A DNA stretch of 64,000 nt, taken from assembly GCA_044226485.1 (NCBI GenBank), contig JBGAGY010000011.1:168806-232805 (forward strand), read 5' to 3'. The translations under genes were made by a program, and so were the position numbers. The notes beneath the pieces were generated by a model. The model ran no database searches and was not told the origin of the DNA. It saw only the letters and a program-made list of their open reading frames with translations. The DNA is from Anaerolineales bacterium. GTDB taxonomy: Bacteria; Chloroflexota; Anaerolineae; Anaerolineales; UBA6663. Each line of letters opens with the position of its first letter. The first letter of the stretch is position 1. Positions 35,168-62,122 of this stretch are shown here, piece by piece.

Positions 35168-35267
35168 GCGTTCAGTCTAGCCAAGGCCCGAGGATTGTGA
35201 CCCGTCGTCAGGCGGGTTTTCGCCTGGTCACGCGGCCAGGTCCGGTCCGCGGGCAGCCGGGGTCGGG

Positions 35268-36167: not shown

Positions 36168-36298
36168 CCCAGGCTCCATCCCTTTCGGTTCGTGTGCCTG
36201 GTTGAGTGTACAGAGGGTCAGGAATCGAAGGCTGTTCTTCGGGCGGGTTTTGGCCTGGCCAGGTGGCCAGGGTCACACGATGTGCGAAGGGCGCCGAC

Positions 36299-40242: not shown

Positions 40243-40299
40243 ACAGTGCCGATGCTCATCTTTCGTCAGGAGACTGATCCTGGTCTGAGCCTGGCGGAC

Positions 40300-40875
40300 T
40301 CAGGCACGCATCGACGGTTGAGCCCGAGCTCGCCTGTCATCGGCCATCAGTTCTGCCAGACGCTCGCGAGCGATGTGATAGCGGTGTTTGGTGACATCGA
40401 CCGACGCCTCAAGGACCCCGGCTATCTGCCCGAACGAGAGATGCTCCCAACAGCGTAGCAGGACGATCAGCCGGTCCTTTGGAGCCAGTCGATCCAGGTG
40501 GTCCAGAAGCAGGCGAGCGCGATGGGCGACGCCTGTTTCTGGGCCCTGGCCAGCCGGTCCCGAAATCGCGCCGGCCGAACTTAGGGCGCGCCCGTCAGCC
40601 AACAGATCCAGACAGAGCCGGCCGGCATAGCCAAGCACCCAGAGGCGGAAATCCTCCCGGACACATGCGTCCGCTCGATGACGGAAGGCAGCCGCGAACG
40701 TCGCGGCCGTGGCTCGATCGGCCTCTGCGTGATCGCCGAGCATGCGCAGACACAGGTGTTGGACGGAACTACCGCAACCGTCCACGCAACGGTCGAAGGC
40801 CGCTGGGTCGTTCAGGTCGATGGCTTCAGACGGGGTGAACGGGTTGATCGCGTGCTGACGGATGAAGGCAAGCAT
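40300..40875 (-). CDS. ECF-type sigma-70 family factor
   Basis: Region 2-like LCLRMLGDHAEADRATAATFAAAFRH...FRLWVLGYAGRLCLDLL. Region 4 HTH LSFGQIAGVLEASVDVTKHRYHIARERL. Confidence 0.7.
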   Translation of the reverse strand: MLAFIRQHAINPFTPSEAIDLNDPAAFDRCVDGCGSSVQHLCLRMLGDHAEADRATAATFAAAFRHRADACVREDFRLWVLGYAGRLCLDLLADGRALSSAGAISGPAGQGPETGVAHRARLLLDHLDRLAPKDRLIVLLRCWEHLSFGQIAGVLEASVDVTKHRYHIARERLAELMADDRRARAQPSMRA

Positions 40876-41011
40876 GACGGACCGCCGGGCGATCGGCTGA
40901 ACACAAGCCGATCCATCCTCAACACACTACAGATCCGGCGGACCTTTCGCACCCGACCCCAGAGGAGTTCGCACCTGGTCAACCGGCCAGGGGACCATGC
41001 ATCCGGTGCGT

Positions 41012-42583
41012 TCACGGGGCCGCCGCAGGGCTCCAGGTCACGCCGAAGCCATCGTCGTATTGGACCAGTGTGTGGGGTCGGTCGAGACGATACCAGGCCG
41101 TCTCATGGCCCAATCGGACGCGGTATGCGCGCACCGATTCGGTGGGCGTCTGGATCGTTTCCAGGCTGACGATCTGCACAACCGAAAGTTCGCCCTGCCC
41201 GGTCATCAGACCGGGGCGCACATCCAACAGCGTCAGGCGAGCGCCCCAGAAGAGCGCCCGGTCGAACGGCAAAGCCATCATGCGCCACGGCCACTCAGCC
41301 GCCACGACGCTGTCGGCCGGGACCGATACAGGTGACTGCGCGTCCAGCTTGAGTTGGAGCGACTCGTCCACCGACTTGAGGGCCGCCGTCCACTCCAGCG
41401 ACTCGCCCTGGAAGTGGTAGTCGGCGTCGAGCAGGCGCATCGTGTCGGTCTGCCAGTGCCCGGCTCCGGTCAGGCTATAAGCGCCGCCGGCGTAGTAGGA
41501 CTGACCGACCTGCAGCTCGAAGCGACGTTGCTCAACCCGACACTCAAACGCCACGCGATCCGCCTCGGGGGTGAATTGGCAGGTCGAACGTCCGACGACG
41601 GTGCCCGCGACATTCTTGAGGTCATACGTCGCCGTGGTTGGTTCTGACCAGGCTGACGGCTCGAGTTGCAACTGCGGATCGGCGAGCACCTCCGGGTAAC
41701 GACCCTGAGCCAACTCAAGGCCGGCGCCCGCCAGATACAGGGCTGACGCAATCGCCAATGGCCAGAAAGCCCGGCCTCCGATCGGCATGGTCGCGGCTAA
41801 CGGCGCCGTCTTGCGCCGCTTGAGGGACCAGGCAGCGGCGACAGCAACCAGAATGGCGATGACCCCAAAGACACCGAGGCCTGTCAGAACAATCTCGCTT
41901 GAGAATGCGGCGGGTTCGATCGCGTTGATCAGCATCAGCGCAACGCTGACCCCATTGTGCACGGCATGCGCCACAATCGATGGCCAGAGCGACCGCGTGC
42001 ATTGGGCCAGGAGCCCGGTTGCCAACGCCAGCGGGAAAAGGGCCAGGGCGCCCTGCAAACGGAAGTGGAACATGACAAACAGACCGCTCACGAGCATCAG
42101 ACTGAGGCGACGGCCGATGGGGCTGTACGCGTGCAGCAACACGCCGCGAAAGAGGATCTCTTCGCAGACCGGGGCGAACAAGGCGAGCGCCAGCGCCAGA
42201 GTCGTGAGACTCAGCGGATCGGCTGATGCAAGACCGAGCATCGACGGCGGACGGTAGCCCAGGAGGGTGACGCCCAGAGCGTCAAACACATTGGACAACA
42301 CCCAGGCGCCCAGGCCGAGAGCCGCGCCGATGGCCAGATCCCTCCCACCGGAACCGCTCAACGGCACGGCGGCCGAAAACGACAGGCCCGACAGACGGAT
42401 CCAGAGCAGAGCCGGCACGAGGATCAACCCGAGTTCGGTGGCGATCAGGCCCCACCCTAACGCCGCCCACTGCACCAGGCTACCCAGAGTCAGAACCAGA
42501 AGCATGGAGACGAGGTAGAGGCCATTAGCCAGGAGGACTCGACGTTGCAGGCTTGCGTTGGAAGAGAGTTCTGAAAGAGACAT
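41012..42583 (-). CDS. CPBP-family protease fused to a large C-terminal extracytoplasmic domain
   Basis: CEEILFRGVLLHAY, MFHFRL and AHAVHNGV motifs in the N-terminal membrane half. About 250-aa C-terminal domain of unknown function. Start placed at MSLSELS. Confidence 0.7.
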   Translation of the reverse strand: MSLSELSSNASLQRRVLLANGLYLVSMLLVLTLGSLVQWAALGWGLIATELGLILVPALLWIRLSGLSFSAAVPLSGSGGRDLAIGAALGLGAWVLSNVFDALGVTLLGYRPPSMLGLASADPLSLTTLALALALFAPVCEEILFRGVLLHAYSPIGRRLSLMLVSGLFVMFHFRLQGALALFPLALATGLLAQCTRSLWPSIVAHAVHNGVSVALMLINAIEPAAFSSEIVLTGLGVFGVIAILVAVAAAWSLKRRKTAPLAATMPIGGRAFWPLAIASALYLAGAGLELAQGRYPEVLADPQLQLEPSAWSEPTTATYDLKNVAGTVVGRSTCQFTPEADRVAFECRVEQRRFELQVGQSYYAGGAYSLTGAGHWQTDTMRLLDADYHFQGESLEWTAALKSVDESLQLKLDAQSPVSVPADSVVAAEWPWRMMALPFDRALFWGARLTLLDVRPGLMTGQGELSVVQIVSLETIQTPTESVRAYRVRLGHETAWYRLDRPHTLVQYDDGFGVTWSPAAAP

Positions 42584-42653
42584 GATGATCGGCTTCGCAA
42601 TAGCTGGAGGTTTCCGAACGGAGGGCGGTTCCTGGATGCCTAAGGCGCGACCC

Positions 42654-43934
42654 TCAGGGCAAGTGTGACTCGGTCTGAGCCAGGACGGTGTCAACCATCA
42701 CGTCGACGAACCGCGATGACTCAGAGACCCAGGGCGTATGGCCGGAGTGCTCGAACCACACGATCTCTTTGTGAGGAGCCTCGAGCCTCTCGGCGAACTC
42801 CTCGAGCAGGGTCGGCGGCGCATTGACGTCGTGGCGCCCGATCAGGAAGTACACGGGCACATCGAGTTCGGGAACCTGTTGGCGGAAGTCCACGGTCCAA
42901 AGTTGAGGGTATACGACTCCCAACGTCTCGATCACGCCGCGGAACCAACTGACCTTGTCGTACAGGCCATATTCCGGCGCGGCCAGATCGCGAAACGTGT
43001 TAGCGCCGTTGTCTGCGATCTCGGGGTTGTCGTTCATGTACTCAAAGGTATCCATCAGGAAGGCCGCCTCCTTCAAAGCGACATCGTCGCCGTAATACGG
43101 CGGTGGCCCCTGACGCGTGAGTGTTTCGATCTTGGCTGTGTCGCCGCGCTCGCGGGCCAATCCAAGCGCGAACTCGTAGCAGAGGCGATCATTCTCCAGG
43201 AACGCGACCATCTGGCCCGTTCCGATGAAAGCCCGCACATCCTCCGGGTACCGTTGAGCGTAGAGGATGCCGAGGGCGCTGCCCCACGACTCCCCGAGCA
43301 GATAGACTCCGTCGATGTGGAAGCGCTCGCGCAGCAGCCCGATCAGGGCGTGAGCGTCCTCAAGATACCGTTCTGGTGTGAGCGTCGCTCGATCGACCGC
43401 ATCGAAAGACTTACCCGAGCCGGGCTGCTCCCAATTGACCACAACGAAGTGATCCTCAAGCTCTTGAAGCGCGAAACGGGCCGTCGCCAATTGGCTGCCG
43501 CCGGGCCCGCCGGCCAGGAACAGCAGAACCGGCTTCGTGGCATCTCGCCCTCGGATCGAGATCCACTGCCGGCTGCCCTTCAGGTCCACGGTCTCGAGCA
43601 CGGCGATGCTGCCGGCAACCGTGCGACCCTCAGCATCCGTGATGGGTGGCGTCATCGCAAATGCCTGCGATACCACGACGGCCAGCGTGCTCATCAGCGC
43701 GAGCCCGGCCACGGCGAGGCTCGGACCCTTCAGCGCTCGATCATATCGAAGTGCAACAACTGCGAGGCCCAGGGCGGTGAGCATCAGCGGCAGCCACAGC
43801 CAGATGGGCACAGCAGTCGCCTGAGGCAGGAGCGCAAGGGGTATACACAACAGAAGCCCGAGCAACACCAGGATCGTCTGCGCCGCCATCCGGGCAACTG
43901 GTCTGACCCATCCGAAGTGTGTCGCGTTCAACAT
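42654..43934 (-). CDS. membrane-anchored alpha/beta hydrolase (prolyl-aminopeptidase-like, S33)
   Basis: N-terminal TM segments. LFLAGGPGGS and nucleophile elbow GESWGS. Confidence 0.85.
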   Translation of the reverse strand: MLNATHFGWVRPVARMAAQTILVLLGLLLCIPLALLPQATAVPIWLWLPLMLTALGLAVVALRYDRALKGPSLAVAGLALMSTLAVVVSQAFAMTPPITDAEGRTVAGSIAVLETVDLKGSRQWISIRGRDATKPVLLFLAGGPGGSQLATARFALQELEDHFVVVNWEQPGSGKSFDAVDRATLTPERYLEDAHALIGLLRERFHIDGVYLLGESWGSALGILYAQRYPEDVRAFIGTGQMVAFLENDRLCYEFALGLARERGDTAKIETLTRQGPPPYYGDDVALKEAAFLMDTFEYMNDNPEIADNGANTFRDLAAPEYGLYDKVSWFRGVIETLGVVYPQLWTVDFRQQVPELDVPVYFLIGRHDVNAPPTLLEEFAERLEAPHKEIVWFEHSGHTPWVSESSRFVDVMVDTVLAQTESHLP

Positions 43935-44379
43935 CGCCTTTCGCCCTTCGAGCCACGCCGGCTGAGCCGACGCAGGCTCCTGTTAGTTGAGGAATCCCCT
44001 CTGGCGTAGAGTCCACCAGCGTTGGCGGTACCCGGGAGTCGTTACCAACTCCGACCACACATCCTGGAAGGTGACCGTCCGCCGACATTCCAGCACAACG
44101 TCCAAGACGAGAGTCGCAGCCCGTACAATACGCCGATCAAGTCAGGTGCTCTTGATCGAGTTGTCCGGTCTAAATGGCCGTCGGTCTAGCCCAAGGATAA
44201 GGGCAATCGCGCCCGCCCCTACAGACGCCAGACGGGTATCGGCCCTGGTCAGTCGGACAGGATTCCCGATGGCCAGAAGCGTTCACACCCAGAGTGACTT
44301 CCCGCTGAGGTTCGGTGGGTTGGAACTTCTATGATGTTGGCGACTGGCGGCTGGCGCACTCGAGCAACCAAAATTAGCG

Positions 44380-44553
44380 CTTTGATGTGTCTTCCAATCA
44401 GGGCGCACCATCGAACGCAGATCATCGAAGCTGCTCCGCTGCACGGTCAATTGGTCTAGGCCGCGGCCCACGAGCAGCGGAGACTGCTCCACTACTCGGG
44501 TTATTTCGATTTGCTCTGCCGCGGAGCGCCGGATCCGGCGTTCCATGGCTTCT
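44380..44553 (-). mobile_element. remnant of IS3/IS481-type orfA (third, fragmentary copy)
   Basis: Encodes ...RIRRSAAEQIEITRVVEQSPLLVGRGLDQLTVQRSSF, matching MERLIRRSPAERMEINSVVEQSPLPAGRVLEQLNVPRSSF of the copy at 54310-55866. DNA identity ends abruptly at about 44553. Confidence 0.55.
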
Positions 44554-44629
44554 CCCGCCTGGGCCTATTTGCCAGGATCCACATGCCTCTGGCTCGCGCG
44601 CCGTTGGCGTCACTCGGGATTTGCTGTCG

Positions 44630-44845
44630 ATCTGGTCATGTAATCAATTCCTGCTCGCGCTCGTCCTTATTGAAGACCCCACGCAGCGGACCATAGCCGG
44701 CGCCTTGGGAGCGTTCCAGGGTCACTATGCGACCAATGTGCCGTTGCTCTGCGCGGGCACCATCCTGATCCTATTCGTGCTATTTCAGCGTCAGACCATT
44801 GCTGCGTTGTTGCAGGGCTCGATCAACGGATCGGGCGCGAAGCGG
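44630..44845 (+). pseudogene. 3' fragment of a sugar ABC permease gene
   Basis: NQFLLALVLIEDPTQRTIAGALGAFQGHYATNVPLLCAGTILILFVLFQRQTIAALLQGSING resembles the C-terminus of MalG/UgpE-type permeases. No N-terminal part present. Confidence 0.45.
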
Positions 44846-44895
44846 GTTGCCTCGTTATGGCTCGGAAGGTGCTCCTCTATCCGCTCGATGGCTCC

Positions 44896-45345
44896 TCACG
44901 AATCCTGCGGCTTGAGTTCTTCGGCAAGCCCGATGAGGATGCCTTCGGGGCCACGGATGTAGCAGAGCCGATATACCCCTTCGTAATTCACGATCTCATC
45001 AACAACCGTCGCGCCTACCTTACTGAGCCGGGCGAGGGTGTCGTCGAGGTTCTCGACGGCAAACATGACGCGCAGATATCCTAACGAGTTCACAGGTGCC
45101 CTGCGATGGTCCGACGCGATGGCGGGAGCGTCGAAGCGCGAGAGCTCAATGTGGCTGTGACCATCGGGGGTGTGCAGCATGGCGACCTCGACGCGCTGGT
45201 CACGCACCCCTGTGACGCGGCCGGCCCATTCGCCTTCGATCATCATACGGCCCTCAAGGGCGAGGCCGAGTTCGCTGAAGAACTCAATCGCACCTTCAAG
45301 GTTCTCAACCACGATACCGACGTTGTCCATGCGCTTGACCGCCAT
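44896..45345 (-). CDS. VOC (glyoxalase/bleomycin-resistance/dioxygenase) family protein (cassette)
   Basis: 149 aa from MAVKRMDNVGIVVENLEGAIEFF. GGAGGAG Shine-Dalgarno sequence upstream. The longer ORF-track N-terminus crosses the attC. Confidence 0.9.
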   Translation of the reverse strand: MAVKRMDNVGIVVENLEGAIEFFSELGLALEGRMMIEGEWAGRVTGVRDQRVEVAMLHTPDGHSHIELSRFDAPAIASDHRRAPVNSLGYLRVMFAVENLDDTLARLSKVGATVVDEIVNYEGVYRLCYIRGPEGILIGLAEELKPQDS

Positions 45346-45441
45346 AACCTCTCCTCCGGTACTCACCAAGGTAGCGCCCGTGCGGCCAATTCTCGCACGA
45401 TCACATGGCCTCGTCAGATTCGGCTTCGGCCCAGTGAGACA

Positions 45442-45535
45442 GACTGACGGCTCGCAGCAGTTGTGTAGCAGGTGAGCCGAGGCCGGCCGGCTTGGGGCCC
45501 CAGTTAGCCACGTCAGCTGCATGCGTTCGTTGGGC
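45442..45535 (-). repeat. attC site, short form (~94 nt)
   Basis: gactgacggctcgcagcagttgtgtagcaggtgagccgaggccggccggcttggggccccagttagccacgtcagctgcatgcgttcgttgggc. Lacks the inner module. Confidence 0.75.
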
Positions 45536-45976
45536 CGTCTGTCGGTACAGACCGGGTACATGGGTGACACTCTGGCCGCAGAATCAGGGCTGGGAGGACC
45601 GGCCCACGCCCTGGAATGTGAGTTCACCCATGTCTCAACGCGCCGACTTCATCCGAGACCTCGAGCGGGTCTCTTCACCGACCCATTCGCTGCTCTCCCG
45701 CGCTTTGCTCGCCTTTCCACCTCCCAGCAGGCGACCGGGAACCTTTTTGGGTTGTGACCCATGTTCGCGGTCCACCTGGTACAGATGTCCCCGACAGTTC
45801 AGCGCCACACTTGCCTCGCCAAACTGGTGATTCTGGATTGTGCTATCTATGGCAGGAATGCAATGAAATGAACGCCCAACTTTGCATAATAGCAAAGCCC
45901 CTCGTTCCTAAAACAATACTTCCAACAATACTCTAGTATCTATGAGCTAACACCTTACGTCCCATATCTTGAGTAC

Positions 45977-47828: not shown

Positions 47829-47942
47829 GCATCGCTGGCTAGGTCGCATTCGACGTTCACACAAGGCCGACCACTCGAAGCGGTTTCGCTCAGCAAGTAC
47901 TCTCGCATACATGGCCCCCTACAAGCTGTCTGGGAACCTAAC

Positions 47943-49540
47943 TGTATGTCGTCAGCTGAAACCGGACAGAAATCGCTTCTGAGATTGTCGCACTTCTGGC
48001 TATTGTATAGCCCCATGGGAGGCCGCTATGCCGAGGAAGAAGGCGTCCGTTGCAGACACCGTTCGCGCCATCCGCGGGTGACTGTCGGTCGTTGACCGTG
48101 CGGAAGTTCTCAGCGGAAGACAAGATCCGCCTTGTCCTCGACGGCATCCGTGGCGAGACCGGCTGTGCGCGCGGACACGGTCCGCCCTCTGCTGGCGAGA
48201 GGGCATCGCCACCAACCTCTATGACACCTGGAGCAAAGAGTTCCTCGATGCCGGCAAGAAAAGCCTGGTAGGCGACACCGAACGTCAGGCCGATAGCCGC
48301 GATGTGTCTGACTTGCGTCATGAGATGAACCAACTCAAGCCTGTGGTGGCCGAGCTCTCGCTCAAGAACCGTGTGCTTGAAGATTACTTACTGGGTCGGG
48401 AGAAGCCATGGACGCTCGGCTGGAGCTATGCTCCAGTCGCCTGATTCTGCCGCTATAAGCGGAACGTTCGCCCGCCGCGAAGATGGAGATCATTCGCGAG
48501 GTGGAGCAGTCTCCGCTGCCGGTCGGCCGCGCCCTAGAACAATTGAACGTGTCGCGGAGTCGCTTCTATGAGTGGTATCGCCAGTCCTTAAAGGAAGGAG
48601 AGGACGGGCTCTCGCCTCGGCAAAGGGAAAGACGCCAATTTTGGAACCGAGCCCCGGAGCAGGTGCAGAGCCAAATCGTCGAACTGGCCCTGCAGCAGCA
48701 TGCAGATCAGTCGTTTCCCGAAATTGCGTGGCCCGTCACCGATCGGGGGCGGTATTTCCTCTCAGAGTCCATCGTTTATCGCCTGCTCAGACGGATCGAA
48801 CGTCGGATGCAACCGCGTCCGCGGTCACGACGCCGGCGTTCGAGTTGGTCACAGCGGCCGAGACAATCGGCACGCCCACGCAGCGGATGAACGAGCTCTG
48901 GCAGACGGACTTCACCTATATCAAGATCCAGAGTTGGGGTTGGTATTACCTTTCCACCGTGCTGGACAATTTCTCGCGCTAAATCCTAAACTGGAAGCTC
49001 ACGTCCACCATGGCCGCCGACGATGTGCTCGTCACGCTGGAATTGGCGTTGAAAGCTGCAGGACTCCAACACGCCCGCGTCCGCTATCGACCGCGGCTTC
49101 TTTCGGACAACTGGCCGGCCCATCTCTCGAAGGAGCTGCGCGAGTATCTGGAGGAGCACGATATCGAGCACACGCGCGTGGCCCCGTTTCATTCGATGAC
49201 GCAGGCCAAGATCGAACGCTATCACCCTCGATGAAGAACATCGTGCCGCCGGAGAACTACTTCATACCCGAACCCCTCGAGCGAGCGATCAAGGCCCTCG
49301 TAGAACAATACAACCGCCACCGCTATCACGTGTCGCTGAACAATCCGACGCCCGCGGATGTGTACTCCGGGCGACCCAAGGAGATCTTGAACCGACGAGC
49401 GAAGATCAAGCGCGATACGTTGGCTGACCGTCGCTTCATGGCCCAGCAGACCCGCCTGGCGGCGGGCCTATCATCGATCAGGCCAAGAGTGTAGGGATCA
49501 GAACGGGGCTCGACTGTCCGGCTTTAGCTGAACCCAAACA
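47943..49540 (+). mobile_element. IS3/IS481-type insertion sequence, copy 1 (heavily decayed)
   Basis: Ends tgtatgtcgtcagctgaaaccggacag ... ctgtccggctttagctgaacccaaaca form imperfect TG..CA inverted repeats. The HTH + rve coding region is broken by many frameshifts and stops (ORF fragments 48483-48890, 49010-49234 and others). Confidence 0.8.
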
Positions 49541-49992
49541 CACATCCGGATACATGTAGGATTGCACTGTACTGCCCATCGGCACGCCACAGCGCGGTCC
49601 GTGCGGAGCGGCGGATATGGTGTGGGCGACGGCGATGAAACCGTTCGACCCATTGGCCTGGCGCCGCACTGGTTCTCGCGATGAGGTTCCACCGGGAATA
49701 ATGGCGCTTATGGGCAGTGCATCTGAGCCGTCGTGTCGACGGTCCGGCGTCGCGTGAGACGTGACAGGTCCATCCACTGCTCATTCCGGATCAATGCTCG
49801 AGTAAGGTCATCCCTGAGATCCTGCGCTCATCCGGTATGATGTGCACCGTTCGAGCGGCAACGGAGACCTGACGTCGACCAAGATTCGCGATCCAGGGTG
49901 TCGCGCGCAATGCTTCTGTGCTCTAGACAAGTGTCACGAATCGCGCACATGTCGTGATTTCGCTCTATTCTCTTTTCATTTGAGTACCACCC

Positions 49993-50673
49993 ATGACTTC
50001 GCCCTTGACGATCGCCATTCTCGACGACCATTCCATCACGGTCGATGGCTACCGCGCCCGTCTGGCTCAAGATCCAGCGCTGCGCATTGCCTGGGCGACG
50101 GCCTTCGGAGAGGACGTCCTGACCCGCATGGAACAGCAGCCGGTCGACGTCCTGATCCTGGACGTCAGCGTGCCGACCTCCTCGACGAACTCAAACCCCT
50201 ACCCCATCCTGGACGTGATCCCGCGTCTGCTCGACCGCCAGCCCGCTTTGACCATTCTCGTGATCTCGATGCACATGGAGAGCCGCCTGATCAAAGGAGT
50301 CCTTCGTCTGGGGGCATCAGGGTACGTGCTCAAGGATGATCGCGCGGCCCTGGACCGCCTCGATCAGATCGTCCGGACAGTCGTTGCTGGAGATCTCTAT
50401 GTCAGCCCCCTTGCCGAGCAACGCTGGCGTGATCGGCAAGACGCCGCGGACTCTCCCTTGACGCCGCGTCAACTGCAGGCCCTGTCGCTCTGCCTGGCCT
50501 ATCCAGATGAGACTTCTCAGCAGCTTGCCCTACGGCTCGGCGTAACATCCGTCACACTCCGCAACCTGTTATCAGGCGCTTACCTCCGGCTCAATGTGCG
50601 CTCCCGCGCTGCGGCAGTGGCCGAGGCCCAGCGCCGCGGTGTCATCACACCCCCGGGGCCAGCCCTGCCGTAG
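49993..50673 (+). CDS. LuxR/NarL-family response regulator
   Basis: Receiver domain (IAILDDH...VLILDVSVP) plus LuxR-type HTH (LTPRQLQALSLCLAYPDETSQQLALRLGVTSVTLRNLLSGAYLRL). Confidence 0.85.
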   Translation: MTSPLTIAILDDHSITVDGYRARLAQDPALRIAWATAFGEDVLTRMEQQPVDVLILDVSVPTSSTNSNPYPILDVIPRLLDRQPALTILVISMHMESRLIKGVLRLGASGYVLKDDRAALDRLDQIVRTVVAGDLYVSPLAEQRWRDRQDAADSPLTPRQLQALSLCLAYPDETSQQLALRLGVTSVTLRNLLSGAYLRLNVRSRAAAVAEAQRRGVITPPGPALP

Positions 50674-52733
50674 GCAGTCACCTTCTCCGCCTGGTTTCAG
50701 GGTGAACATCACTTCTGGCGACCGCCCTATCAGTGCGCCCCGCTGGTCGAATGGATGCGAGGGCGAAACTGTCTGCTAAGGCGACGGGGCCGTTGCTGCT
50801 GTGACCAAACCTGTGACCCGCCCGCAGCCGGATCATGGTACAAGTGGGATAGGTATAGGGTTGAGATGACAAACGGTGGCGGCGACTCGAATCCCATGGG
50901 CCAGCAGGCGACGGCGAGGACAACTCATCGCGTGGGTCGGGCGAGGTCCGAACGACGCTCTCCACGCGCGCTCGGACTTGTGTATGGGCTGGTGGCGGCG
51001 ACGCTGATGGCGTTGCTCGGCTACACCTACGGACTGATGGTGGCCCTGCCCTATGCGGGTTGGGATGGTCTCGGGGCCGATGGGACGATCCAGTATGTCT
51101 GGCGAACCGACACGGGATTGCGTGAAGGTGACAAGTTGCTGTCGGTGGATGGCCGGGCCGTGACCGACTTCCGTCGTGATCTTCGGCAGCCATTCTGGTC
51201 TTCCAGTCATTCCGAGACCGTGACCTACACGGTTGAACGCGACGGCCAAAGGCTGAACCTCACGGCCCCGCTGTCGCGCTTCACTTCCCGCGAACTCGAA
51301 GAACGGCTGCTCAGTCAATGGTTTCTGGCGTGGGCCTTTGCCCTGGCCGGCCTGGCCATCATGCTGGTCGTGCGGCCGAGGGACACGCGCTGGTGGCTGC
51401 TGGTCGTCTTCCACGCTCTGACCGCGCTCTGGCTGAGTGCCAGCAGCCTCTCACGGTGGCACGCCTGGGAAAGCATGCTGCTTCTGCACGCGGCGATCTG
51501 GGCGAGTGTGCCGGTGAACTGGCATCTGCACTGGATCTTTCCGACGTCTCTGACCCGCGTGCCGCGCGTCGCCTGGATCGGCGCGTACGGTCTGGCCACG
51601 CTGCTGATCGTGGCCGAGCTGGCGCAAGTCGTCCCCGCCTCCACCTACAACATCGGATTCCTGCTGGCGCTCAGCGGCGTGCTGGTGCCCTGGATTGTGC
51701 GGGCCGTGCGTCGCCAGATGCCGCCGGGCGCGCGCCTGATGCTCATCGCGGTTGTCGCCGCTATCGTGCCCACGCTGGTGTTCAGCAGCTTGTATTGGAC
51801 GCAGCGCCCGGTCCTTGCCGCCGGCCTGGGCTTGCTCGCGTTGCCTATACTGCCAGCTGCGTACGTCTACATGGCCAGCCGCCGACAATTGGGCGGCCTT
51901 GAACTTTGGGCCAATCGTGCGCTGGCCGCCTATCTCTACGCGCTCGGCACGATGTTCCTGGCCGCTCTGGCGGCTATGACGGTCTGGCAACTGGCGCCTG
52001 ACAGTTCGATCGTCCTGGGCACCGCTGTGGGTTTGACGGCCATCGTTGCCATCCTCACTCCCAGTCTTTTCCCGTCGGTGCAACGTTGGATCGAACGCCA
52101 TCTGCTGGGATTGCCTTGGGATCGCGACCGTCTGGTCGAAGGCTATCTGGCACAGATCGTGGCCGCGACCGACCTCTCAAGCCTGGTCCATGCCCTTCGC
52201 GATAAGATCCTGCCCTCGCTGCTCGTGCGCCAATCCGTGCTATACCAGATCAACGAGGTCCAGTCGCCCGAACTGATCTATGAGCACGGCATTGCCCAGA
52301 ATGCACTGATCGATCAGCAGACCTTGAGCGCCTGGAGTCACAACTCGTCTGAACCGGAGGGATGGGTGCGCCTGATCCTGCCACTGAAGCTGGACGGCGA
52401 TCCGGTCGGGCTGCTCCTGCTGGGCGCGCACGATCCCGATGACGTCTATACCGCCTCTGAGCGCGCACTCCTGCGCACAATAGCTGATCAGACCGCGATC
52501 GCGCTGGCCCACGCGCGCCGAACCGAGCAACTTCGCCTGCTGTTTCAGGCGAACATCGAACGGCATGAAGCCGAGCGAGCCGCGTTGGGCCGTGACCTTC
52601 ATGACGACATTCTGCAGCAGATGGCGGTGCTGGCGACCCATGCCCCCAATCCGGCCGGAGACGCAGCTTACGCGTCGATTGTGAGCCGCACCCGGCAGAT
52701 GATCAGCGGCCTGCGTCCGGTGATGCTGGACTA

Positions 52734-53567
52734 GAAGTCATCCTAAAAATGGCGCCTGAGCAGAATGCAGATGCAGGCCAACTGGACAAAGGCCAAGTAG
52801 TTCTCGATTTTGCGCTCGTAGCGGATCACGATCCGGCGGAAGTTCTGGAGCCAAGCGTTGGTCCGCTCGATCTTCCAGCGTCGTTTGTAGCGGCGCAACG
52901 GTCGTCCATCTTGGGTGAACCGGCGTCGGTTCGAACGGTTCGGCGCGATCAGTTCAATGCCTCGGCGAGCAAGGCGAGCATCATGTCCGTCACTATCGTA
53001 GGCTCCGTCGCCGATGAGGCGGCGGGGTCGAGCCGGGACAAAACGGGCTGCAAGAGTCGGTTCAACGAGGGCGATTTCAGCCGTCGAAGCAGCCGATACG
53101 TGAATGGCGACAGGAAGACCAGTGCGGTCTGCGATTGCCATGATTTTGCAGCCTTTTCCACGCCGCGTCTTGCCGATCGCGGCTCCCCCTTTTTCGCGGA
53201 GACGAAGGTGGCGTCGATGAAGCACTCCGAGAGATCCAGCTTGCCGCGCCGTTTGAGATCACGGGCCAGCGCTTTGAGGACCTTCTCGAACACGCCGGAC
53301 CTGACCCACTCCTGGAACCGCTTGTGGCAGGTCGACTTGGACGGGTATCGCGGAGAGGGCAGATCCTCCCACTGCGCACCCGTGCGCATCACCCACAGAA
53401 TGCCGTTCAGCACCGCTCGATCCGGGCAGCGCGGCCGGCCTTTGCCGTCGGCTCGTGCCGGTCGCTTGGGGATCAAGGGCTCAACCACCGCCCACTGTGC
53501 ATCCGTTAGGTCCATGGCTGCCGCACCTCTCGGTACGGCGCAGTGTACCCATTTTTAGGATAGCTTC
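52734..53567 (-). mobile_element. IS5-family (IS427-group-like) insertion sequence, 834 bp
   Basis: Inverted repeats gaagtcatcctaaaaatgg / gaagctatcctaaaaatgg. TA direct duplication at 52732-52733 and 53568-53569. Confidence 0.85.
52743..53515 (-). CDS. IS5/IS427-type DDE transposase, two overlapping frames joined by a putative -1 frameshift
   Basis: orfA LTDAQWAVVEPLIPKR...LNGILWVMRTGAQWEDLP. orfB ...IGDGAYDSDGHD...RWKIERTNAWLQNFRRI. The frames overlap at AAAAAGGGGG (complement of 53196-53205). Confidence 0.85.
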
Positions 53568-54355
53568 TACGGTCTGGCCGTCGCGCTCGAGCAGCTGGCC
53601 GATGATCTGGCCGATCGCGCCGGGTCCGGCCTTGACCTGCGGGTGAGCCTAACAGGCGAAGCGCGCTATTCGACGCTCGTGGAACAGCATGTCTATCGCA
53701 TCGTTCAGCAGGCTGCCGAGAACGCGCTCAAACATGCCCAGGGATCGTGGATAGAGATCTCGGGCACCCTCGACGCCGACGCTCTGGCGTTGTGGGTCAC
53801 CGACAACGGCGTCGGCATCCCCTTGGAGTTGACCACCGCTCTCGGGCCGCTGATCGCGCAACATCACTTTGGTCTTGCTGGCATGGTCGAGCGCGCGACT
53901 CTGATCGGCGCGGCTCTTGAGGTGCGGGCGCTGCCTCAAGGCGGCAGCACGGTGGGCGTGCGGTGGCCCAAGGCTAGCCATTCGTCATAGCTGGCATGCC
54001 CAGCACCACACGTGTTTGTGGAGTGGGACAGAGGATGGCCGCCGAACGCTCATCCAGGCGCCGCGCATAGATCGCGATCGGTTCTTTCGCGAAAACTCCC
54101 CCGAGGCCTCGCCGAGGCCGTCGACGAGTTCGCCTGAGAGGGTCTCAATTGTGCCGATCAGGCTGTCGCTCACGAACTGCGCAAACACCGCGACCTCCAC
54201 ACCCGTCCCCACACCGTTGTCGTCGTTGAACACAAGCGGAACCCCGGTAGCCTGAGGCTCTCCCCAGTCATCGGGAGCATCGATCTGGAATTTGTTGGCG
54301 CTCGTAGACTGTTTGGGTTCAGCTAAAGCCGGACAGTCGAGCCCCGTTTTGATTC

Positions 54356-55180
54356 CTACACTCTTGGCCTGATCGATGATAGGCCCGCCGCCAGGTGGGT
54401 CTCTTTGGCCATGAAGCGACGGGCAGCCAACCTGTCGCGTTTGATCTTCTCTCGGCGGTCCAGGATCTCCTTCGCTCGCCCAAAGTACACGTCCGCGGGC
54501 GTCAGGTTGTTCAGCGACTCGTGATAGCGGTGGTGGTCGTATTGCTCCACAAAGGATCGAATGGCGCGCTCGAGCGGCTCTGGCATGAAATAGTTCTCCA
54601 GCAGCACGATGTTCTTCATGGAGCGGTGATAGCGCTCGATCTTGCCCTGCGTCATCGGGTGGAACGGCGCCCCACGTGTGTGCTCAATGTTCTGCGCCTC
54701 CAGATACTCGCGCAACTCTTTGGAGAGATAGGCCGGTCCGTTGTCCGAGAGCAGCCGAGGTCGATGGCGCACGCGAGCGTGCTTGAGCCCCGAGGCTTTC
54801 AAGGCCAACTCGAGCGTGTCGAGCACATCGCTGGCGGCCATGGTGGACGTGAGCTTCCAGGCCAGGATGTAGCGTGAGAAGTCGTCCAGCACCGTGGAGA
54901 GGTCGTACCAGCCCCAACCCTGGATCTTGATGTAGGTGAAGTCGGTCTGCCAGAGCTCATTCACTCGCTTCGTGGGCGTGCCGAACGAGTCGGCAGCCGT
55001 GATCACCTCGAACGCCGGCGTCGTGACGAGATCGAACCGCTTGAGCAAGCGATAAACGCTGGATTCTGAGACGAAATACTGCTCTCGATCGGTGAAGAGC
55101 CAAGCGATTTCTCGCGCGAAGCCCTCGCGCGACGACTTATCCGGATACTCCAGAGCCAGTTCTAGGATTTGGCCGCGCAC
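54356..55180 (-). CDS. rve (DDE integrase-core) transposase segment
   Basis: LWQTDFTYIKIQGWGWYDLSTVLDDFSRYILAW...LLSDNGPAY...HPMTQGKIERYHRSMK. The N-terminal HTH part lies upstream, separated by an in-frame TAA. Confidence 0.8.
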   Translation of the reverse strand: MRGQILELALEYPDKSSREGFAREIAWLFTDREQYFVSESSVYRLLKRFDLVTTPAFEVITAADSFGTPTKRVNELWQTDFTYIKIQGWGWYDLSTVLDDFSRYILAWKLTSTMAASDVLDTLELALKASGLKHARVRHRPRLLSDNGPAYLSKELREYLEAQNIEHTRGAPFHPMTQGKIERYHRSMKNIVLLENYFMPEPLERAIRSFVEQYDHHRYHESLNNLTPADVYFGRAKEILDRREKIKRDRLAARRFMAKETHLAAGLSSIRPRV

Positions 55181-55280
55181 TTGCTCGGCGATGCGATTCC
55201 AAAACTGGCGCCGTTCCCTCTGCCGAGGCGAGAGCCCGTCCTCTCCTTCCTTTTAGTACTGGCGGTACCACTCATAGAAG

Positions 55281-55781
55281 CTACTGCGCGGCACGTTCAA
55301 TTGTTCTAGAACGCGGCCGGCAGGCAGAGGAGACTGCTCCACCACGCTGTTGATCTCCATTCTCTCGGCAGGTGAACGCCGGATCAGGCGTTCCATGGCT
55401 TCTCCCGACCCAGCAAGTTTTTTTCGAGCACGCGGTTCTTGAGGGAGAGCTCCACCACCAGCTGCTTGAGTTGGCTGACCTCATTGCGCAGCTAGCTGCG
55501 CCGCGCAACTCAAACACGCCGCGGCTATCGGCCTGGCGTTCGGTATCGCCGACCAGGCGCTTCTTGCCCCGCATCAAGGAACTCTTTGCTCCAGGTGTAA
55601 TAGAGGTTGGTGGCGATGCCTTCGCGCCGGCACCGTGCGGACCGTGTCCGCGCGCACAGCCGGTCTCGCCACGGATGCCTTCGAGGACGATGCGGATCTT
55701 GTCTTCAGCTGAGAACTTCCGCCGGGTCACCCGGCGGATGGTGCGAACGGTCTCTTCAACGGACGTCTTCTTCCTCGGCAT
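55281..55781 (-). pseudogene. IS orfA/HTH region with frameshifts
   Basis: Starts MPRKKTSVEETVRTIRRVTRRKFSAEDKIRIVLEGIRGE, then loses frame. EGIATNLYYTWSKEFLDAG is readable in another frame. Confidence 0.7.
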
Positions 55782-55866
55782 AGCGGCCTCCCTTGGGGCT
55801 ATACTATGGCCGGAAGTGTAACAATCTCAGAGGCTATTTTTGTCCGATTTCAGCTGACGACATACA

Positions 55867-55948
55867 GCCCGGCGACTCGCCGGTGAACCGAAGCCGGCAT
55901 TGACTTGGGGCCCCGGTTAGCCACGTCAGCTGCATGCGTTCGTTAGGC
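55867..55948 (-). repeat. attC site truncated by IS insertion
   Basis: gcccggcgactcgccggtgaaccgaagccggcattgacttggggccccggttagccacgtcagctgcatgcgttcgttaggc. The first ~45 nt of the consensus are missing at the IS junction. Confidence 0.8.
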
Positions 55949-56214
55949 GGTTTGAAGCTGTGCCAGAACCCCACTCTGGCCTCAAACCTCTTTGTTACGC
56001 CCTCGCCTGGCTCTCGACGGTTCTCCGCTAACGATCATTCCACCGCTCCATGCATCTTCCCATCTTGCGATTTCACGTAATCGTGTGACTGTCGCACAAT
56101 TTGCTCAAGGATGGGCAGCTCGATGTCGCTGAGCCGCGTGAGGTACACACAGACGCCTCTCGCCGTGTGCTTGCCCGGGCGCTCGAGCAGCAAGGATGCT
56201 GTTCAGGTTCACCA

Positions 56215-57010: not shown

Positions 57011-57139
57011 GCCTAACGGCCCGCATCAGCTGCGTGGCGGGTGAACCGAGGCCGGGCTGCCCGAAGGCGCGCCGGTGAACCGAGACCGGCACGGCTTGGG
57101 GCCCCAGTTAGCCACGTCAGCTGCATGCGTTCGTTAGCC
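57011..57139 (-). repeat. attC site
   Basis: gcctaacggcccgcatcagctgcgtggcgggtgaaccgaggccg...gccggtgaaccgagaccggc...cttggggccccagttagccacgtcagctgcatgcgttcgttagcc. Confidence 0.9.
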
Positions 57140-57173
57140 GGCCGGTGGTCTTTGAGCCAACGACTGCCTCCCA

Positions 57174-58370
57174 TCATAGGGCTTCCACCAATCTCACTGC
57201 CTCGCTAACACCATCTTCATCGGCACGAATGGCAGCGCCCAAGGCACCGGATTTCGCACGCATTGAAACATCAGATATGGCCTGTTCGATGGATCGCGCC
57301 AGTTTGTCAACGGTCATGTGGCCACGCGAAAAGTACCGAGGGCCTACGCCCATTTCAAAGACGCGCTGCCCCCAGTAGTATTGATCGATGATGTGTGGGA
57401 TCACAATACTGGGCACACCCGCGCATAACCCCGCAGCTGTCGTGCCAAAGCCACCGTGGTGAATCACCGCCGTCACCTGATCGAATAGCCAAGCGTGTGG
57501 CAGCGAGCCAGCGGAATATACCGTGGGCGGCACAACCAACGTTTCCAGAATATCTCCCCAACCTTGCACAATGGCACGCGCTCCCGTTCGGCGCAGCGCC
57601 TCCAATACCATCTGCGCGCTTTGCCGGCCCTTGGTCGCCCCCATGACGCCTAGGCTGACCGCCACGGGCCGATCGCCAGCAAGCAAAAAGTCGAGCAACG
57701 CAGGCGGCGGTGCCCAACCGGGGGGAGGACGCGCGCACCAATAGTTGGTCTGATGTACCTGTGGTAGCCACCGTGGGTTTGCTGGCGCTACATGGTGGCT
57801 GACAGGCAGCAATATCAGGCGCGGCGAAAGCATGGTGGTGATGTCTTTCACCAACGGTGCGTTCACTCTTTTGCGAAAGCGGTTCGTGGGGCCGACAAAG
57901 AGTCTTCCGAGCGTCCAACCAAAGAGCCTTTCGATCACGGTTGGCGGGCCAGCCGGGAGAGTAGGAACACGCGCTGGCTGGAGGGTCACGCTGATCCACG
58001 GCTTGTTCAGCTTTTCAGCTTCGACCACACCACTCCCAGTATCCGACGTGACTACCAGATCCGCAGTCATGCAAAGCGCCAAAACGTCGGAGTAGGCATC
58101 TTGCACGAGTCGTCCGGCCAACTGCATCACGCGGATCATTCCCAGCCACATATTACCGAATGATCGCGCCATCAGTCGTGCGCCTTCAACGCCCATATCC
58201 ACCGGGTGCCCCACCGGTGCCGCTTGGAGGCCGTGTTGCTCAACCAATGGGCAGAGTGTCGGGTTGGTGGCCAGCGTCACATCATGGCCGGCATCCCTGA
58301 GACCCTCGCCCAAGACGATATAGGGTTGCACGTCACCACGTGATCCAATGGTAGCAACGATGATCTTCAT
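57174..58370 (-). CDS. GT1-family UDP-glycosyltransferase (MGT/sterol-glucosyltransferase-like) (cassette)
   Basis: KIIVATIGSRGDVQPYIVLGEGL N-terminal motif. C-terminal donor-binding HHGGFGTTAAGLCAGVPSIVIPHIIDQ. Confidence 0.9.
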   Translation of the reverse strand: MKIIVATIGSRGDVQPYIVLGEGLRDAGHDVTLATNPTLCPLVEQHGLQAAPVGHPVDMGVEGARLMARSFGNMWLGMIRVMQLAGRLVQDAYSDVLALCMTADLVVTSDTGSGVVEAEKLNKPWISVTLQPARVPTLPAGPPTVIERLFGWTLGRLFVGPTNRFRKRVNAPLVKDITTMLSPRLILLPVSHHVAPANPRWLPQVHQTNYWCARPPPGWAPPPALLDFLLAGDRPVAVSLGVMGATKGRQSAQMVLEALRRTGARAIVQGWGDILETLVVPPTVYSAGSLPHAWLFDQVTAVIHHGGFGTTAAGLCAGVPSIVIPHIIDQYYWGQRVFEMGVGPRYFSRGHMTVDKLARSIEQAISDVSMRAKSGALGAAIRADEDGVSEAVRLVEAL

Positions 58371-58388
58371 TTTGACATCCCAAGAGCC

Positions 58389-58484
58389 GGCTAACGGCCC
58401 GCATCAGCTGCGTGGCGGATGAGCCGAGGCCGCCCTACCCGAAGAGACGCCGGTGAACCGAGGCCGGCCTGGCTTGGGGCCCCC
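58389..58484 (-). repeat. attC site lacking its right-coordinate arm
   Basis: ggctaacggcccgcatcagctgcgtggcggatgagccgaggccg...ggtgaaccgaggccggcctggcttggggcccc, then unrelated sequence. No GCCACGTCAGCTG...GTTAGGC arm. Confidence 0.75.
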
Positions 58485-59106: not shown

Positions 59107-59235
59107 GCCTAACGGCTCGCATCAGCTGCGTGGCGGGTGAGCCGAGGCCGCACCGCCCGACGACTCGCCAGTGAACCGAGGCCGGCACGGTTTGGGCACC
59201 CAGTTAGCCACGTCAGCTGCATGCGTTCGTTAGGC
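59107..59235 (-). repeat. attC site
   Basis: gcctaacggctcgcatcagctgcgtggcgggtgagccgaggccg...cagtgaaccgaggccggc...tttgggcacccagttagccacgtcagctgcatgcgttcgttaggc. Confidence 0.9.
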
Positions 59236-59325
59236 CGCCGTTTGCCTGCAGACTCCATCCAGACGACTATCTCTGGCCACACTCACAACCGACAACCCTC
59301 TTTGCCCGTGGAAGCTTTTTGATGG

Positions 59326-59733
59326 CTACAGCTCCCTGACCACGTCAAGAACGGGCTTCACATCGATAATCGGCGTCGCATCAAACGCCTCCAGATCCAA
59401 CACCTTGATCCGAGTCGGACTTTCGATCTGCACGATCCTCACTCGGTGGATTCCTACAGGATTGGGACGATCCTGCGACCGGGTGCTGAACACCCCTCGC
59501 AGCGGAACGCGCGAATCGTCCCGGGGATGCACGCTCAATACCTCGCGATCACCTCGATCAAGCCACGTGAGCACCAAGATCTCCTCCCCGGCGCGCAGGT
59601 CCTTCAACCCTTGTTCGAACTCTGGCTCGAAAACCAGCCAGGCTTCGGGCGCTCCTTCGAAACCCTGCTTCGGTGCATGTTCCCGATCCACGAGGGGCGA
59701 GCGAACATGACCGATCGGCTTGAGCGTAAACAT
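59326..59733 (-). CDS. TsaA/TrmO-like (UPF0066) domain protein (cassette)
   Basis: LKPIGHVRSP...GVFSTRSQDRPNPVGIHRVRIV...LDLEAFDATPIIDVKP are characteristic of the TrmO N-terminal beta-barrel. Confidence 0.85.
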   Translation of the reverse strand: MFTLKPIGHVRSPLVDREHAPKQGFEGAPEAWLVFEPEFEQGLKDLRAGEEILVLTWLDRGDREVLSVHPRDDSRVPLRGVFSTRSQDRPNPVGIHRVRIVQIESPTRIKVLDLEAFDATPIIDVKPVLDVVREL

Positions 59734-59760
59734 CCGATTCGCCTCCTATTTGGTGGAGCG

Positions 59761-59890
59761 GCCTAACGGCCGGGCATCAGCTGCAGGGCGGATGAGCCGA
59801 GGCCGAGTTGCCCGACGACTCGCCGGTGAACCGAGACCGGCCTGGCTTGGGGCCCCGATTAGCCACGTCAGCTGCATGCGTTCGTTAGGT
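59761..59890 (-). repeat. attC site
   Basis: gcctaacggccgggcatcagctgcagggcggatgagccgaggccg...gccggtgaaccgagaccggc...cttggggccccgattagccacgtcagctgcatgcgttcgttaggt. Confidence 0.9.
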
Positions 59891-59903
59891 GGCTTTCCGA
59901 CGA

Positions 59904-60415
59904 TCAGTTCTCCACACTATTGGCGAATCCACCCGCCAAACACCCAATACGGCCCCTGCATTCATCTGGCACGGAGTCCGCTAGAGACTCGTCCAGAACC
60001 CTCGTTTCGCCTCCGCCGATCGTGATATTGTCGCCGATCTTCCAGGATCTCGTCTCGCCCAGCGGGATATCCTCGACGGTGAGCGTCACTCCGTCGAATT
60101 CGTGGCGAAAGTCTGCCGGCCAAACGACTGTGTAGGTTTCCTCGCCCTCTGAGTACTTGATCCTCACACAGGAGCCTTCGCTCTCCAACGTCCCCTCTAA
60201 GAGGGCTGTCATTCTCGGGAGAGCAAAAAAGGTTCCCGTTGCGCTCGGCGCGGCCCCTGTTGGCTCCGCAACGGACGGTGTTGAGCTGGCAACGATATTG
60301 AATGAACACGCTGCAAAAAAACCAAGGCGCTGGCGACAAATGCGCTGGCAACCAAGGCGCTGGCGACAAATGCGCTGGCATTCCACAGGCAGAAGCGTGA
60401 CGTATCGGTTGACAT
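59904..60415 (-). pseudogene. putative lipoprotein cassette gene split by a frame change at a T7 tract
   Basis: Signal-peptide-like MSTDTSRFCLWNASAFVASALVASAFVASALVF is in one frame (ORF 60209-60415). The mature-looking part (A)ACSFNIVASSTPS... is in the -1 frame (ORF 59904-60431). The frames meet at G UUU UUU G (complement of 60315-60321). Confidence 0.5.
60321..60380. repeat. perfect 30-bp tandem duplication inside the cassette ORF
   Basis: accaaggcgctggcgacaaatgcgctggca x2, duplicating ASAFVASALV in the signal-peptide-like frame. Confidence 0.9.
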
Positions 60416-60481
60416 CCGGATTCCTTCCCACTACCCGCTCGACTCGGCAACAGGAATCACCCCCTCAGAATGCAAGGAGCC

Positions 60482-60609
60482 ACCTAACGCACTGGCATCA
60501 GCTGCGTGGCGGGTCTAGCCAGCCCGGGCTGGCCGAAGGCGCGCCGGCGATGCAACCACACTGGTTGGGGGCCCCGAATAGCTACGTCAGCTGCATGCCA
60601 TTGTTAGGC
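60482..60609 (-). repeat. attC site (diverged centre)
   Basis: acctaacgcactggcatcagctgcgtggcgggtctagccagcccgg...ttgggggccccgaatagctacgtcagctgcatgccattgttaggc. Confidence 0.85.
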
Positions 60610-61348: not shown

Positions 61349-61654
61349 TCAACCGCCAGTCGTTCGACCCTGCTGCCATTGCTTGAGAGATTGCTGGCTC
61401 TCCCCAGATGGCTTTCCGAGAATCAAGTCCTCAACGGCAATATCTTCGTCCAATGCGGGCCAATGGATGCCCTGCCCCTGCCCGACGAGGCGCCAATTCT
61501 TTCGCTCATCGACGCTGCCGTGCAGCAACCGCGGATACCAGCCCAAAGGCACGGAAATCGTCCGCCCGTCCGACAGGTCGACCGTCAACGTGTCGTCGGT
61601 GACAACCACATCCTGAGCCCGCGCTAGTCGGATTTCAGAGGCCAAAGAACTCAT
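61349..61654 (-). CDS. DUF2442-family protein (second gene of a two-gene cassette)
   Basis: 101 aa. ...VVVTDDTLTVDLSDGRTISVPLGWYPRLLHGSVDERKNWRLVGQGQGIHWPALDEDIAVEDLI is the typical DUF2442 pattern. Overlaps the upstream gene by 20 nt. Confidence 0.8.
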   Translation of the reverse strand: MSSLASEIRLARAQDVVVTDDTLTVDLSDGRTISVPLGWYPRLLHGSVDERKNWRLVGQGQGIHWPALDEDIAVEDLILGKPSGESQQSLKQWQQGRTTGG

Positions 61655-61871
61655 TCCATTTCCTCATCAGTGTGTCGCGGTTGTCTTCCACATGACGCTG
61701 GATTTGGGTGATGTCTTTGCGACCAAATCCACCACTACTTTCGAGCCGGACTGGCTCAAGCCAAAACTTGGCAACATTGCTGTCTCGCTCAACATGCACA
61801 TGTGGGGGTTCGCTGCGATCGCCCGAATAAAAGAAGAAGCGATATGGCCCCACCCACAAGACAGTCGGCAT
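61635..61871 (-). CDS. DUF4160-family protein (first gene of a two-gene cassette)
   Basis: 78 aa. MPTVLWVGPYRFFFYSGDRSEPPHVHVERDSNVAKFWLEPV is the DUF4160 signature. The longer ORF-track N-terminus is attC-derived. Confidence 0.8.
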   Translation of the reverse strand: MPTVLWVGPYRFFFYSGDRSEPPHVHVERDSNVAKFWLEPVRLESSGGFGRKDITQIQRHVEDNRDTLMRKWNEFFGL

Positions 61872-61877
61872 TTCGCA

Positions 61878-61906
61878 ACAATATTGCTGAAAGGCGTTTC
61901 TGTCAA
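61878..61906 (-). promoter_or_regulatory. cassette-internal sigma70-type promoter TTGACA-17-TATTGT
   Basis: On the minus strand, TTGACA (61906-61901), a 17-nt spacer and TATTGT (61883-61878). The ATG at 61871 lies only 6 nt downstream, implying a leaderless or near-leaderless mRNA. Confidence 0.6.
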
Positions 61907-61993
61907 CTTTGCCGAAATGCAGCAAAAACGAGCCTATCTGGACGGTAGAGTGCCCCGTTTCCTTGCCTTCGATATTCTGCCCCGGCAGGGTGC

Positions 61994-62122
61994 ACCTAAC
62001 GGCTCGCATCAGCTGCGTGGCGGGTGAGCCGAGGCCGTGCTGCCCGCAGGCACGCCGGTGAACCGAAGCCGCCATGACTTGGGGCCCCAGTTAGCCACGT
62101 CAGCTGCATGCGTTTGTTAGCC
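61994..62122 (-). repeat. attC site
   Basis: acctaacggctcgcatcagctgcgtggcgggtgagccgaggccg...gccggtgaaccgaagccgc...cttggggccccagttagccacgtcagctgcatgcgtttgttagcc. Confidence 0.9.

Follow-up and report, generated by a model that had tools for sequence, protein, structure and literature searches.

The segment at 59761-59890 of the window (the whole stretch of DNA that was analysed, 64 kb) lies between two open reading frames, 59326-59733 and 59904-60431. On the plus strand it reads GCCTAAC-GGCCG-GGCAT-CAGCTG-CAGGGC, then 72 nt, then GCCACG-T-CAGCTG-C-ATGCG-TTC-GTTAGGT. Its box-to-box length is 130 nt, which falls within the attC range of 57-141 bp; the repeat of the family as a whole is about 133 nt. 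Judged from its sequence, the segment is an ordinary attC copy that ends a cassette in a large chromosomal, sedentary array of integron type, from an Anaerolineales-like (Chloroflexota) bacterium.

Anatomy of the site

All features of the copy are given on the plus strand. The R' box GCCTAAC (RYYYAAC), the predicted bottom-strand box, occupies 59761-59767. It is followed by the 5'-arm spacer GGCCG (59768-59772), which has one G more than the GGCT or GGCC of the family, and by the L' arm GGCAT-CAGCTG-CAGGGC (59773-59789), which carries three private substitutions relative to the consensus CGCAT-CAGCTG-CGTGGC. The variable terminal structure of about 72 nt (59790-59861) contains a direct repeat, a small hairpin GCCGGT/GAACCGAG/ACCGGC (59822-59841) and GGGGCCCC (59849-59856); the last two are indeed present where an earlier note on this DNA had seen them, in the centre of the site. 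The direct repeat, GGTGARCCGAGGCCG at 59790-59805 and 59824-59839, is present in every copy and is unable to form an extended stem. The L'' arm GCCACG-T-CAGCTG-C-ATGCG (59862-59880) has two extra bases, T59868 at position 23 and C59875 at position 16. The 3'-arm spacer TTC (59881-59883) and the R'' box GTTAGGT (GTTRRRY, 59884-59890) complete the site, and with three further nucleotides, to 59893, the R'' box complements GCCACCTAAC.

The private changes of this copy are the extra spacer G, C to G at 59773, and GT to AG at 59785-59786. These four left-arm positions are otherwise invariant in 149-150 of 150 copies, and the changes leave 3 of the 17 stem pairs mismatched, one in the 5-bp stem and two in the upper 6-bp stem. 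The description previously given for 59761-59890 fits the family consensus but not the left arm of this particular copy, in which all four changes lie.

Family consensus and distribution

A covariance model was trained on 13 copies from the window. It found about 24 copies between 214 and 63840, every one of them on the plus strand. The copy at 59761-59890 scored 142 bits on the plus strand versus 13.6 bits on the minus strand, and over the copy sites of the window the minus-strand scores were 13-24 bits versus up to 155 bits for the plus strand. The consensus from the 13 window copies, GCCTAAC-GGCT-CGCAT-CAGCTG-CGTGGC...GCCACG-T-CAGCTG-C-ATGCG-TTC-GTTAGGC, was obtained again from 150 copies of the window and related loci, which reproduces the arms proposed earlier, with a T and a C extra in the right arm. 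Co-orientation was strict: among 409 copies at 125 loci, no locus had mixed strands.

AAC and GTT were kept in 149-150 of 150 copies, and the second box position was G in place of Y in about 25% of copies. Among the spacer variants, GGCT was found in 191 copies and GGCC in 150, TTC in 305 and ATT in 46. The extra T and the extra C were each present in 379 of 380 copies, figures that are partly ascertainment by the search pattern, because the related loci were fetched with a right-arm pattern and right-arm conservation is biased accordingly. MAGs of Anaerolineales, Caldilineales and Anaerolineae contain the right-arm pattern, as do at least 120 metagenome stretches, and a contig assembled from run SRR28480388 was identical to window 57115-58413. 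The attC pattern was absent from viral contigs, and an Rfam search returned no matching family. Integrons in Chloroflexi have already been reported (Cury 2016, PMC4889954); our literature search on attC sites of Anaerolineales found nothing specific. Incomplete copies also occur in the window, at 58388-58484, 55852-55949, 45441-45538 and 2398-2467; one kind consists of the 5' two-thirds alone, another of the 3' part alone, a third has an internal deletion and the last is a fragment.

Cassette boundaries and contents

The cassette that owns this attC extends over 59767-60487 on the minus strand. It begins with the ORF 59904-60431, which encodes 175 aa without a Pfam match, and ends with the attC at 59890-59767. 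GTTAGGTGGC (59884-59893) is exactly complementary to GCCACCTAAC (60479-60488), which is the left box of the following attC and marks where the cassette starts. In the same way, GCGGCCTAAC (59758-59767) is exactly complementary to GTTAGGCCGC (59229-59238), which is the right box of the attC at 59106. Bases 59761-59766, with 59758-59760, belong to the neighbouring cassette (ORF 59326-59733). Since the last six core-box bases come from the neighbouring cassette, the true partner of the R'' box sits in the preceding attC.

This relation is general. In 268 cassettes, the boxes flanking one body were 98-100% Watson-Crick complementary at the 6 positions past AAC/GTT and 76% at the seventh. The two boxes of one attC in the array matched in 30-81%, identical to random pairs. 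Such body-specific complementarity rules out a generic palindromic repeat and bears out the attC identity that the earlier note had assigned. The units have one ORF each at a spacing of 0.6-1.4 kb, and cassette bodies 98-99% identical were found in different arrays, which points to recent cassette movement.

Several cassette genes could be assigned by family. An overlapping DUF4160 and DUF2442 gene pair lies in one cassette (window 61349-62075, minus strand); pairs of this kind are often seen in cassette arrays and are suspected to be toxin-antitoxin-like. Genes of the APH phosphotransferase family (window 27316-28413) and the RibD_C, dihydrofolate-reductase-like family (window 14115-14684), both on the minus strand, are cassette genes assigned by family only. 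An alpha/beta-hydrolase gene at window 422-1291 is on the plus strand, against the array direction, as are about 16% of bodies across the loci.

The array is interrupted by gaps of 8-15 kb at window 3522-12757, 15050-27159, 30274-45441 and 47847-55834, which hold ordinary-looking operons, mostly on the minus strand. Their genes include a sugar ABC transporter, GH4, PfkB, three Rce1-like proteases, a 1106-aa Reg_prop/Y_Y_Y histidine kinase and a TPR/BTAD regulator. These operons may be old cassettes stripped of attC, or insertions. A 136-nt direct repeat outside the attC family (79% identity, window 44422-44557 and 55272-55407) may reflect paralogous cassette genes.

Extrahelical bases and spacer

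In the bottom strand of characterised attC sites, AAC belongs to the 5' R' box, and the other arm carries the extrahelical bases, close to L'' (Nivina 2016, PMC5027507). Position 16 holds the first of these bases, most often a G, and position 23 or 24 the last, a conserved T, with six paired bases in between (PMC5027507, PMC7439510). Counted from the plus-strand 3' end of the present family, GTTAGGC takes positions 1-7, TTC 8-10, ATGCG 11-15, C 16, CAGCTG 17-22 and T 23. The distance from the R box is thus 8 nt for one extra base and 15 nt for the other, and the stem between them has 6 bp, which is the canonical geometry. The earlier suggestion of a non-canonical bulge spacing was therefore mistaken, and of the bulge identities said to differ from the G/T pair only C16 does so, T23 being the conserved canonical base. 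C16 is the sole departure from the canonical identities. In the VCR, changing G16 to C altered recombination 2.7-fold or less (Bouvier 2009, PMC2727003).

The central spacer, GGCT versus TTC, has the 4/3 unpaired nucleotides described before, but these are reducible to 2/1 if G9-C and G10-T pair; the usual length is 5-6 nt per arm. The stem below the first extra base is longer in proportion to the spacer shortening. C16 is a minor variant of the attC design, and the short spacer is probably another.

Stem conservation and folding

The L stem consists of 5 + 6 + 6 bp, which were paired in 96.9-99.9% of cells across the copies. Three of its pairs showed compensatory switches (C-G to G-C, G-C to A-T and G-C to A-T), in nine sequences each of an 87-copy set. 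Changes on both sides of a stem pair were seen in 44 cells, against 14.6 ± 3.3 after shuffling, and 0 of 500 shuffles were as high. Because the stem is near-invariant in the 150 best copies, this covariation comes from a few lineages and not from many independent events. In the terminal structure, three small predicted hairpins were paired in 81-94% of cells with little covariation. By mutual information, terminal-structure columns correlate with their neighbours only, so the inner hairpin and the GGGGCCCC hairpin stay predictions.

Each strand of the copy at 59761-59890 was folded as single-stranded DNA, as had been proposed, and the boxes paired in the minimum-energy fold of either strand. 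The fold energy was no better than that of shuffles (z = -0.9 for the plus strand and -1.2 for the minus strand), as is expected for a single copy at 69% G+C, and the plus strand was not favoured energetically. In the plus-strand ensemble, the base of the recombinogenic hairpin had a probability of 0.63 in this copy and of 0.48-0.89 over the copies of the window, and the probability of the recombinogenic fold was higher for plus than for minus in 8 of 8 copies.

Strand and orientation

When the plus strand is read, both extra bases are on the arm opposite AAC. The bulged-base rule that the earlier note had applied matches the published one (Nivina 2016, PMC5027507), and by this rule the plus strand is very probably the bottom, recombinogenic strand, with the cassettes read on the minus strand. 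Pfam-matched ORFs, ORF strands, linkage to the low-coordinate attC and the array ends all agree with this assignment. The Pfam-matched genes at 57-64 kb (methyltransferase, DUF2442, DUF4160, TrmO_N and glycosyltransferase) are all on the minus strand, and cassette genes elsewhere in the window are mostly so. Across the loci, 218 of 261 bodies (84%) had their longest ORF on the minus strand, as did 194 of the 221 (88%) in which this ORF takes up 60% or more of the body.

Homologous bodies gave a boundary as well as a direction. In their high-coordinate attC, linkage was 100% at columns 2-5 but had dropped to background by column 12 and stayed there; the breakpoint is sharp and falls at RYYYAA|C in the left box. 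Since linkage ends between box columns 5 and 12, the predicted cleavage and crossover in the present copy would lie between A59766 and C59767 of the plus strand. In a 17-member family with bodies of about 222 nt, the low-coordinate attC was atypical in 15 of 17. The family signature of this attC was 55.9 bits (null 9.3 ± 1.7, maximum 16.8), and that of the high-coordinate attC was 9.2 vs 8.2 ± 1.3, which equals a random draw from the population. From this linkage, a cassette is a minus-strand ORF followed by an attC at lower coordinates.

This small cassette is very common in the related loci (L011, L013, L028, L034, L061, L080, L086, L103, L109 and L121), often in tandem, with an atypical attC in two sub-variants, which have compensatory changes in the stem. 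No copy of this cassette was seen in the window.

The linkage tests, per column and by family signature, replaced a comparison of pairwise identity of the attC sites flanking homologous bodies. That comparison was misleading: the left attC differed more than the right, with both at or above background. Across the family the attC sites are about 82% identical, the same level as the bodies, and the atypical ones diverge rapidly. Complementarity between the boxes of neighbouring attC sites was also dropped as an orientation test, as both orientations predict the same pattern.

In the window, attC model scores drop from the right (146-155 bits) to the left (17-62 bits), which fits new cassettes entering on the right. 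The plus-strand GC skew was negative in 13 of the 15 intervals scored. In 25 of 30 sedentary integrons the bottom strand lies on the leading-strand template (PMC5371416), and the negative skew would hint at the same placement here, weakly, since gene orientation confounds it. Energetics gave no preference for the plus strand. Its mean stability was 1.0 kcal/mol less than that of the minus strand, and it was favoured in 30% of 150 copies. G:T pairs (2.29 vs 1.89) and purine skew (+0.02 and +0.04) barely differed between the strands, so the secondary strand biases of Nivina 2016 are not seen in this family.

Array ends and integrase

A tblastn search (E < 0.01) with an IntI1 sequence as query matched no integron integrase, either in the 64 kb of the window or in the 411 kb of 130 related loci, three array ends included. 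No recombinase was found among the ORFs of the window and of related loci that were scanned with Pfam. As the array is cut off by the end of the window, intI may be located beyond coordinate 64000, and the window may be the interior of a complete integron.

Three array ends were found in related loci (L002, L038 and L043), all on the high-coordinate side. Each consists of the last complete attC, one more body without its own attC that differs by locus, CTAAC+ATATMAGTAGASTG, unrelated DNA and an ordinary gene, for example for a Pat-like acetyltransferase or a chemotaxis receptor. By Pfam, the flanks of the array ends encode a Pat-like acetyltransferase, a chemotaxis receptor and a DDE transposase and no tyrosine recombinase, and no integrase was found within 3-13 kb of the three ends. 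The shared CTAAC+ATATMAGTAGASTG, in which the part after CTAAC is a motif 14 nt long, is at L002 5746-5766, L038 1038-1056 and L043 4258-4276 (minus). Read on the minus strand, CTAAC+ATATMAGTAGASTG is a candidate attI-like G|TTRRRY junction before the first cassette, that is, a putative minimal attI. The motif is absent from the window. A match on one phage contig was rejected as due to chance; it is inside a coding region, without attC.

We considered whether the arrays of this lineage are kept apart from their integrase. Several chromosomal arrays would then start, beside ordinary genes, at a conserved minimal motif about 17 nt long, which reads 5'-CASTCTACTKATAT-G|TTAGGC-3' along the cassette strand, and be served by one integrase acting in trans whose pocket is adapted to C and not G. 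We regard this arrangement as rather doubtful.

Comparison with known integrons

Like the VCRs (Vibrio cholerae repeats, about 123-133 bp, sedentary and chromosomal), the present repeats are long (133 nt) and homogeneous within the lineage, and they occur in dozens of co-oriented copies, about one per cassette, with RYYYAAC/GTTRRRY boxes. In both kinds the L'' arm carries the extrahelical bases, 6 paired bases separate the first of them from the last, and the variable terminal structure is long. As in VCR arrays, the bottom strand is probably on the leading-strand template. Unlike the VCR, which has G16, T20 and T24, the sites here have two extrahelical bases, the first of which is C and not G. 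The spacer is 2-4 nt per arm here against 5-6 in the VCR, and the host belongs to Chloroflexota. The terminal structure of the VCR is an extended imperfect stem, whereas that of the present family is predicted to be branched and has a direct repeat. The predicted probability of the recombinogenic fold is also high here, 0.5-0.9, unlike that of the VCR.

The mobile-integron site attCaadA7 (57-70 bp) shares with the present family a 7-nt R box, a first extra base 8 nt away (position 16), a 6-bp stem, T23 and the number of two extrahelical bases. Unlike attCaadA7, the sites here are twice as long, have C16 instead of G16 and are without the GAA-type 3-nt loop. Mobile-integron attC sites favour the bottom strand by 2.1 kcal/mol (263 sites), whereas no energy or purine bias is seen here.

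The loci also resemble CALIN elements, which are attC clusters that lack an integron integrase (PMC4889954), in having at least two attC sites without intI nearby, in the 64 kb and in L002, L038 and L043, though the true array end of the window lies outside it. As in CALIN, the cassettes have no match to known resistance cassettes, and there are several clusters per genome (four contigs in one MAG). Unlike CALIN, of which 83% have fewer than six sites, the window has 24 sites over 64 kb, and the array ends share the attI-like 17-nt motif.

Discussion

The anatomy, cassette structure, crossover position and orientation demonstrated here at the sequence level can be placed in a mechanism whose folding in vivo, integrase and chemistry would be those of established attC sites. 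The plus strand, when single-stranded, would fold into a hairpin. Its base would be an R-box stem (AAC/GTT plus 6-7 cassette-specific pairs), a small internal loop and a 5-bp stem, and above these would follow the bulged C16, the 6-bp CAGCTG stem, the bulged T23, a 6-bp stem and the terminal structure of about 73 nt. The R and L boxes would be bound by a putative integron integrase whose gene would lie outside the window. The pair of bulges opposite AAC would mark the bottom strand, and the cut would be made between A59766 and C59767.

Repeats of another nature, such as REP/BIME-like palindromes, a MITE or a terminator that happens to resemble attC, might have been suspected from the missing integrase nearby, the copies interspersed with ordinary operons over 64 kb, the single-copy fold no better than shuffles and the lack of an Rfam match. 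A palindrome of this sort does not account for box complementarity specific to each body, for strict co-orientation, for one ORF per unit at a spacing of 0.6-1.4 kb, for RYYYAAC/GTTRRRY boxes with extra bases at 16 and 23, or for the same bodies in different arrays with breakpoints at AAC, and we consider it extremely improbable. That the sites are attC but with the minus strand as bottom strand, cassettes on the plus strand and crossover at the right box is very unlikely. It would agree with the slightly better fold of the minus strand (mean 1.0 kcal/mol), with the box-proximal extra base, which is G on the minus strand and so has the usual identity of the first extrahelical base, and with homologous bodies of L061 and L092 that break linkage exactly at the right box. 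However, it would put the extra bases on the AAC arm, the configuration of a top strand, and it conflicts with the 84-88% of ORFs on the minus strand, with a high-coordinate attC interior that is never linked to the body and with array ends whose attC-less last body is on the high-coordinate side.

A milder departure concerns how strictly the asymmetry is obeyed. Bodies 92-99% identical have different attC interiors on both sides in L012/L121, L006/L062 and L061/L092, which is not predicted by the classical model and suggests gene conversion or a rare top-strand or right-box crossover. Both boxes may be used, or homologous recombination or gene conversion may act among near-identical attC sites, so that the asymmetry biases movement and does not fully dictate it; we see this as a strong possibility, if one slightly short of probable. 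In pairs whose bodies are at least 90% identical, the spacer columns of the left attC show no linkage, and variable terminal-structure positions correlate with neighbours only, a mosaic pattern. In known attC sites the top strand is documented to recombine at 10^-3 to 10^-4 of the frequency of the bottom strand (PMC5027507), and the divergent atypical attC stays linked (15 of 17), as expected if exchange requires homology. Yet the informative near-identical pairs number only three, and the main breakpoint is sharp and at the left box.

For plus-strand attC sites that end minus-strand cassettes, the practical value is in annotation, with cassette boundaries and orientation fixed for a 64-kb array. 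The canonical 16/23 geometry holds in a phylum far from Proteobacteria, in which it was defined, together with a family-wide C in place of the usual G and an unusually short central spacer. The several hundred natural variants of the family are material for testing what the integrase reads, and the putative array starts without an integrase beside them and the apparently unlinked attC interiors could inform how large arrays are maintained.
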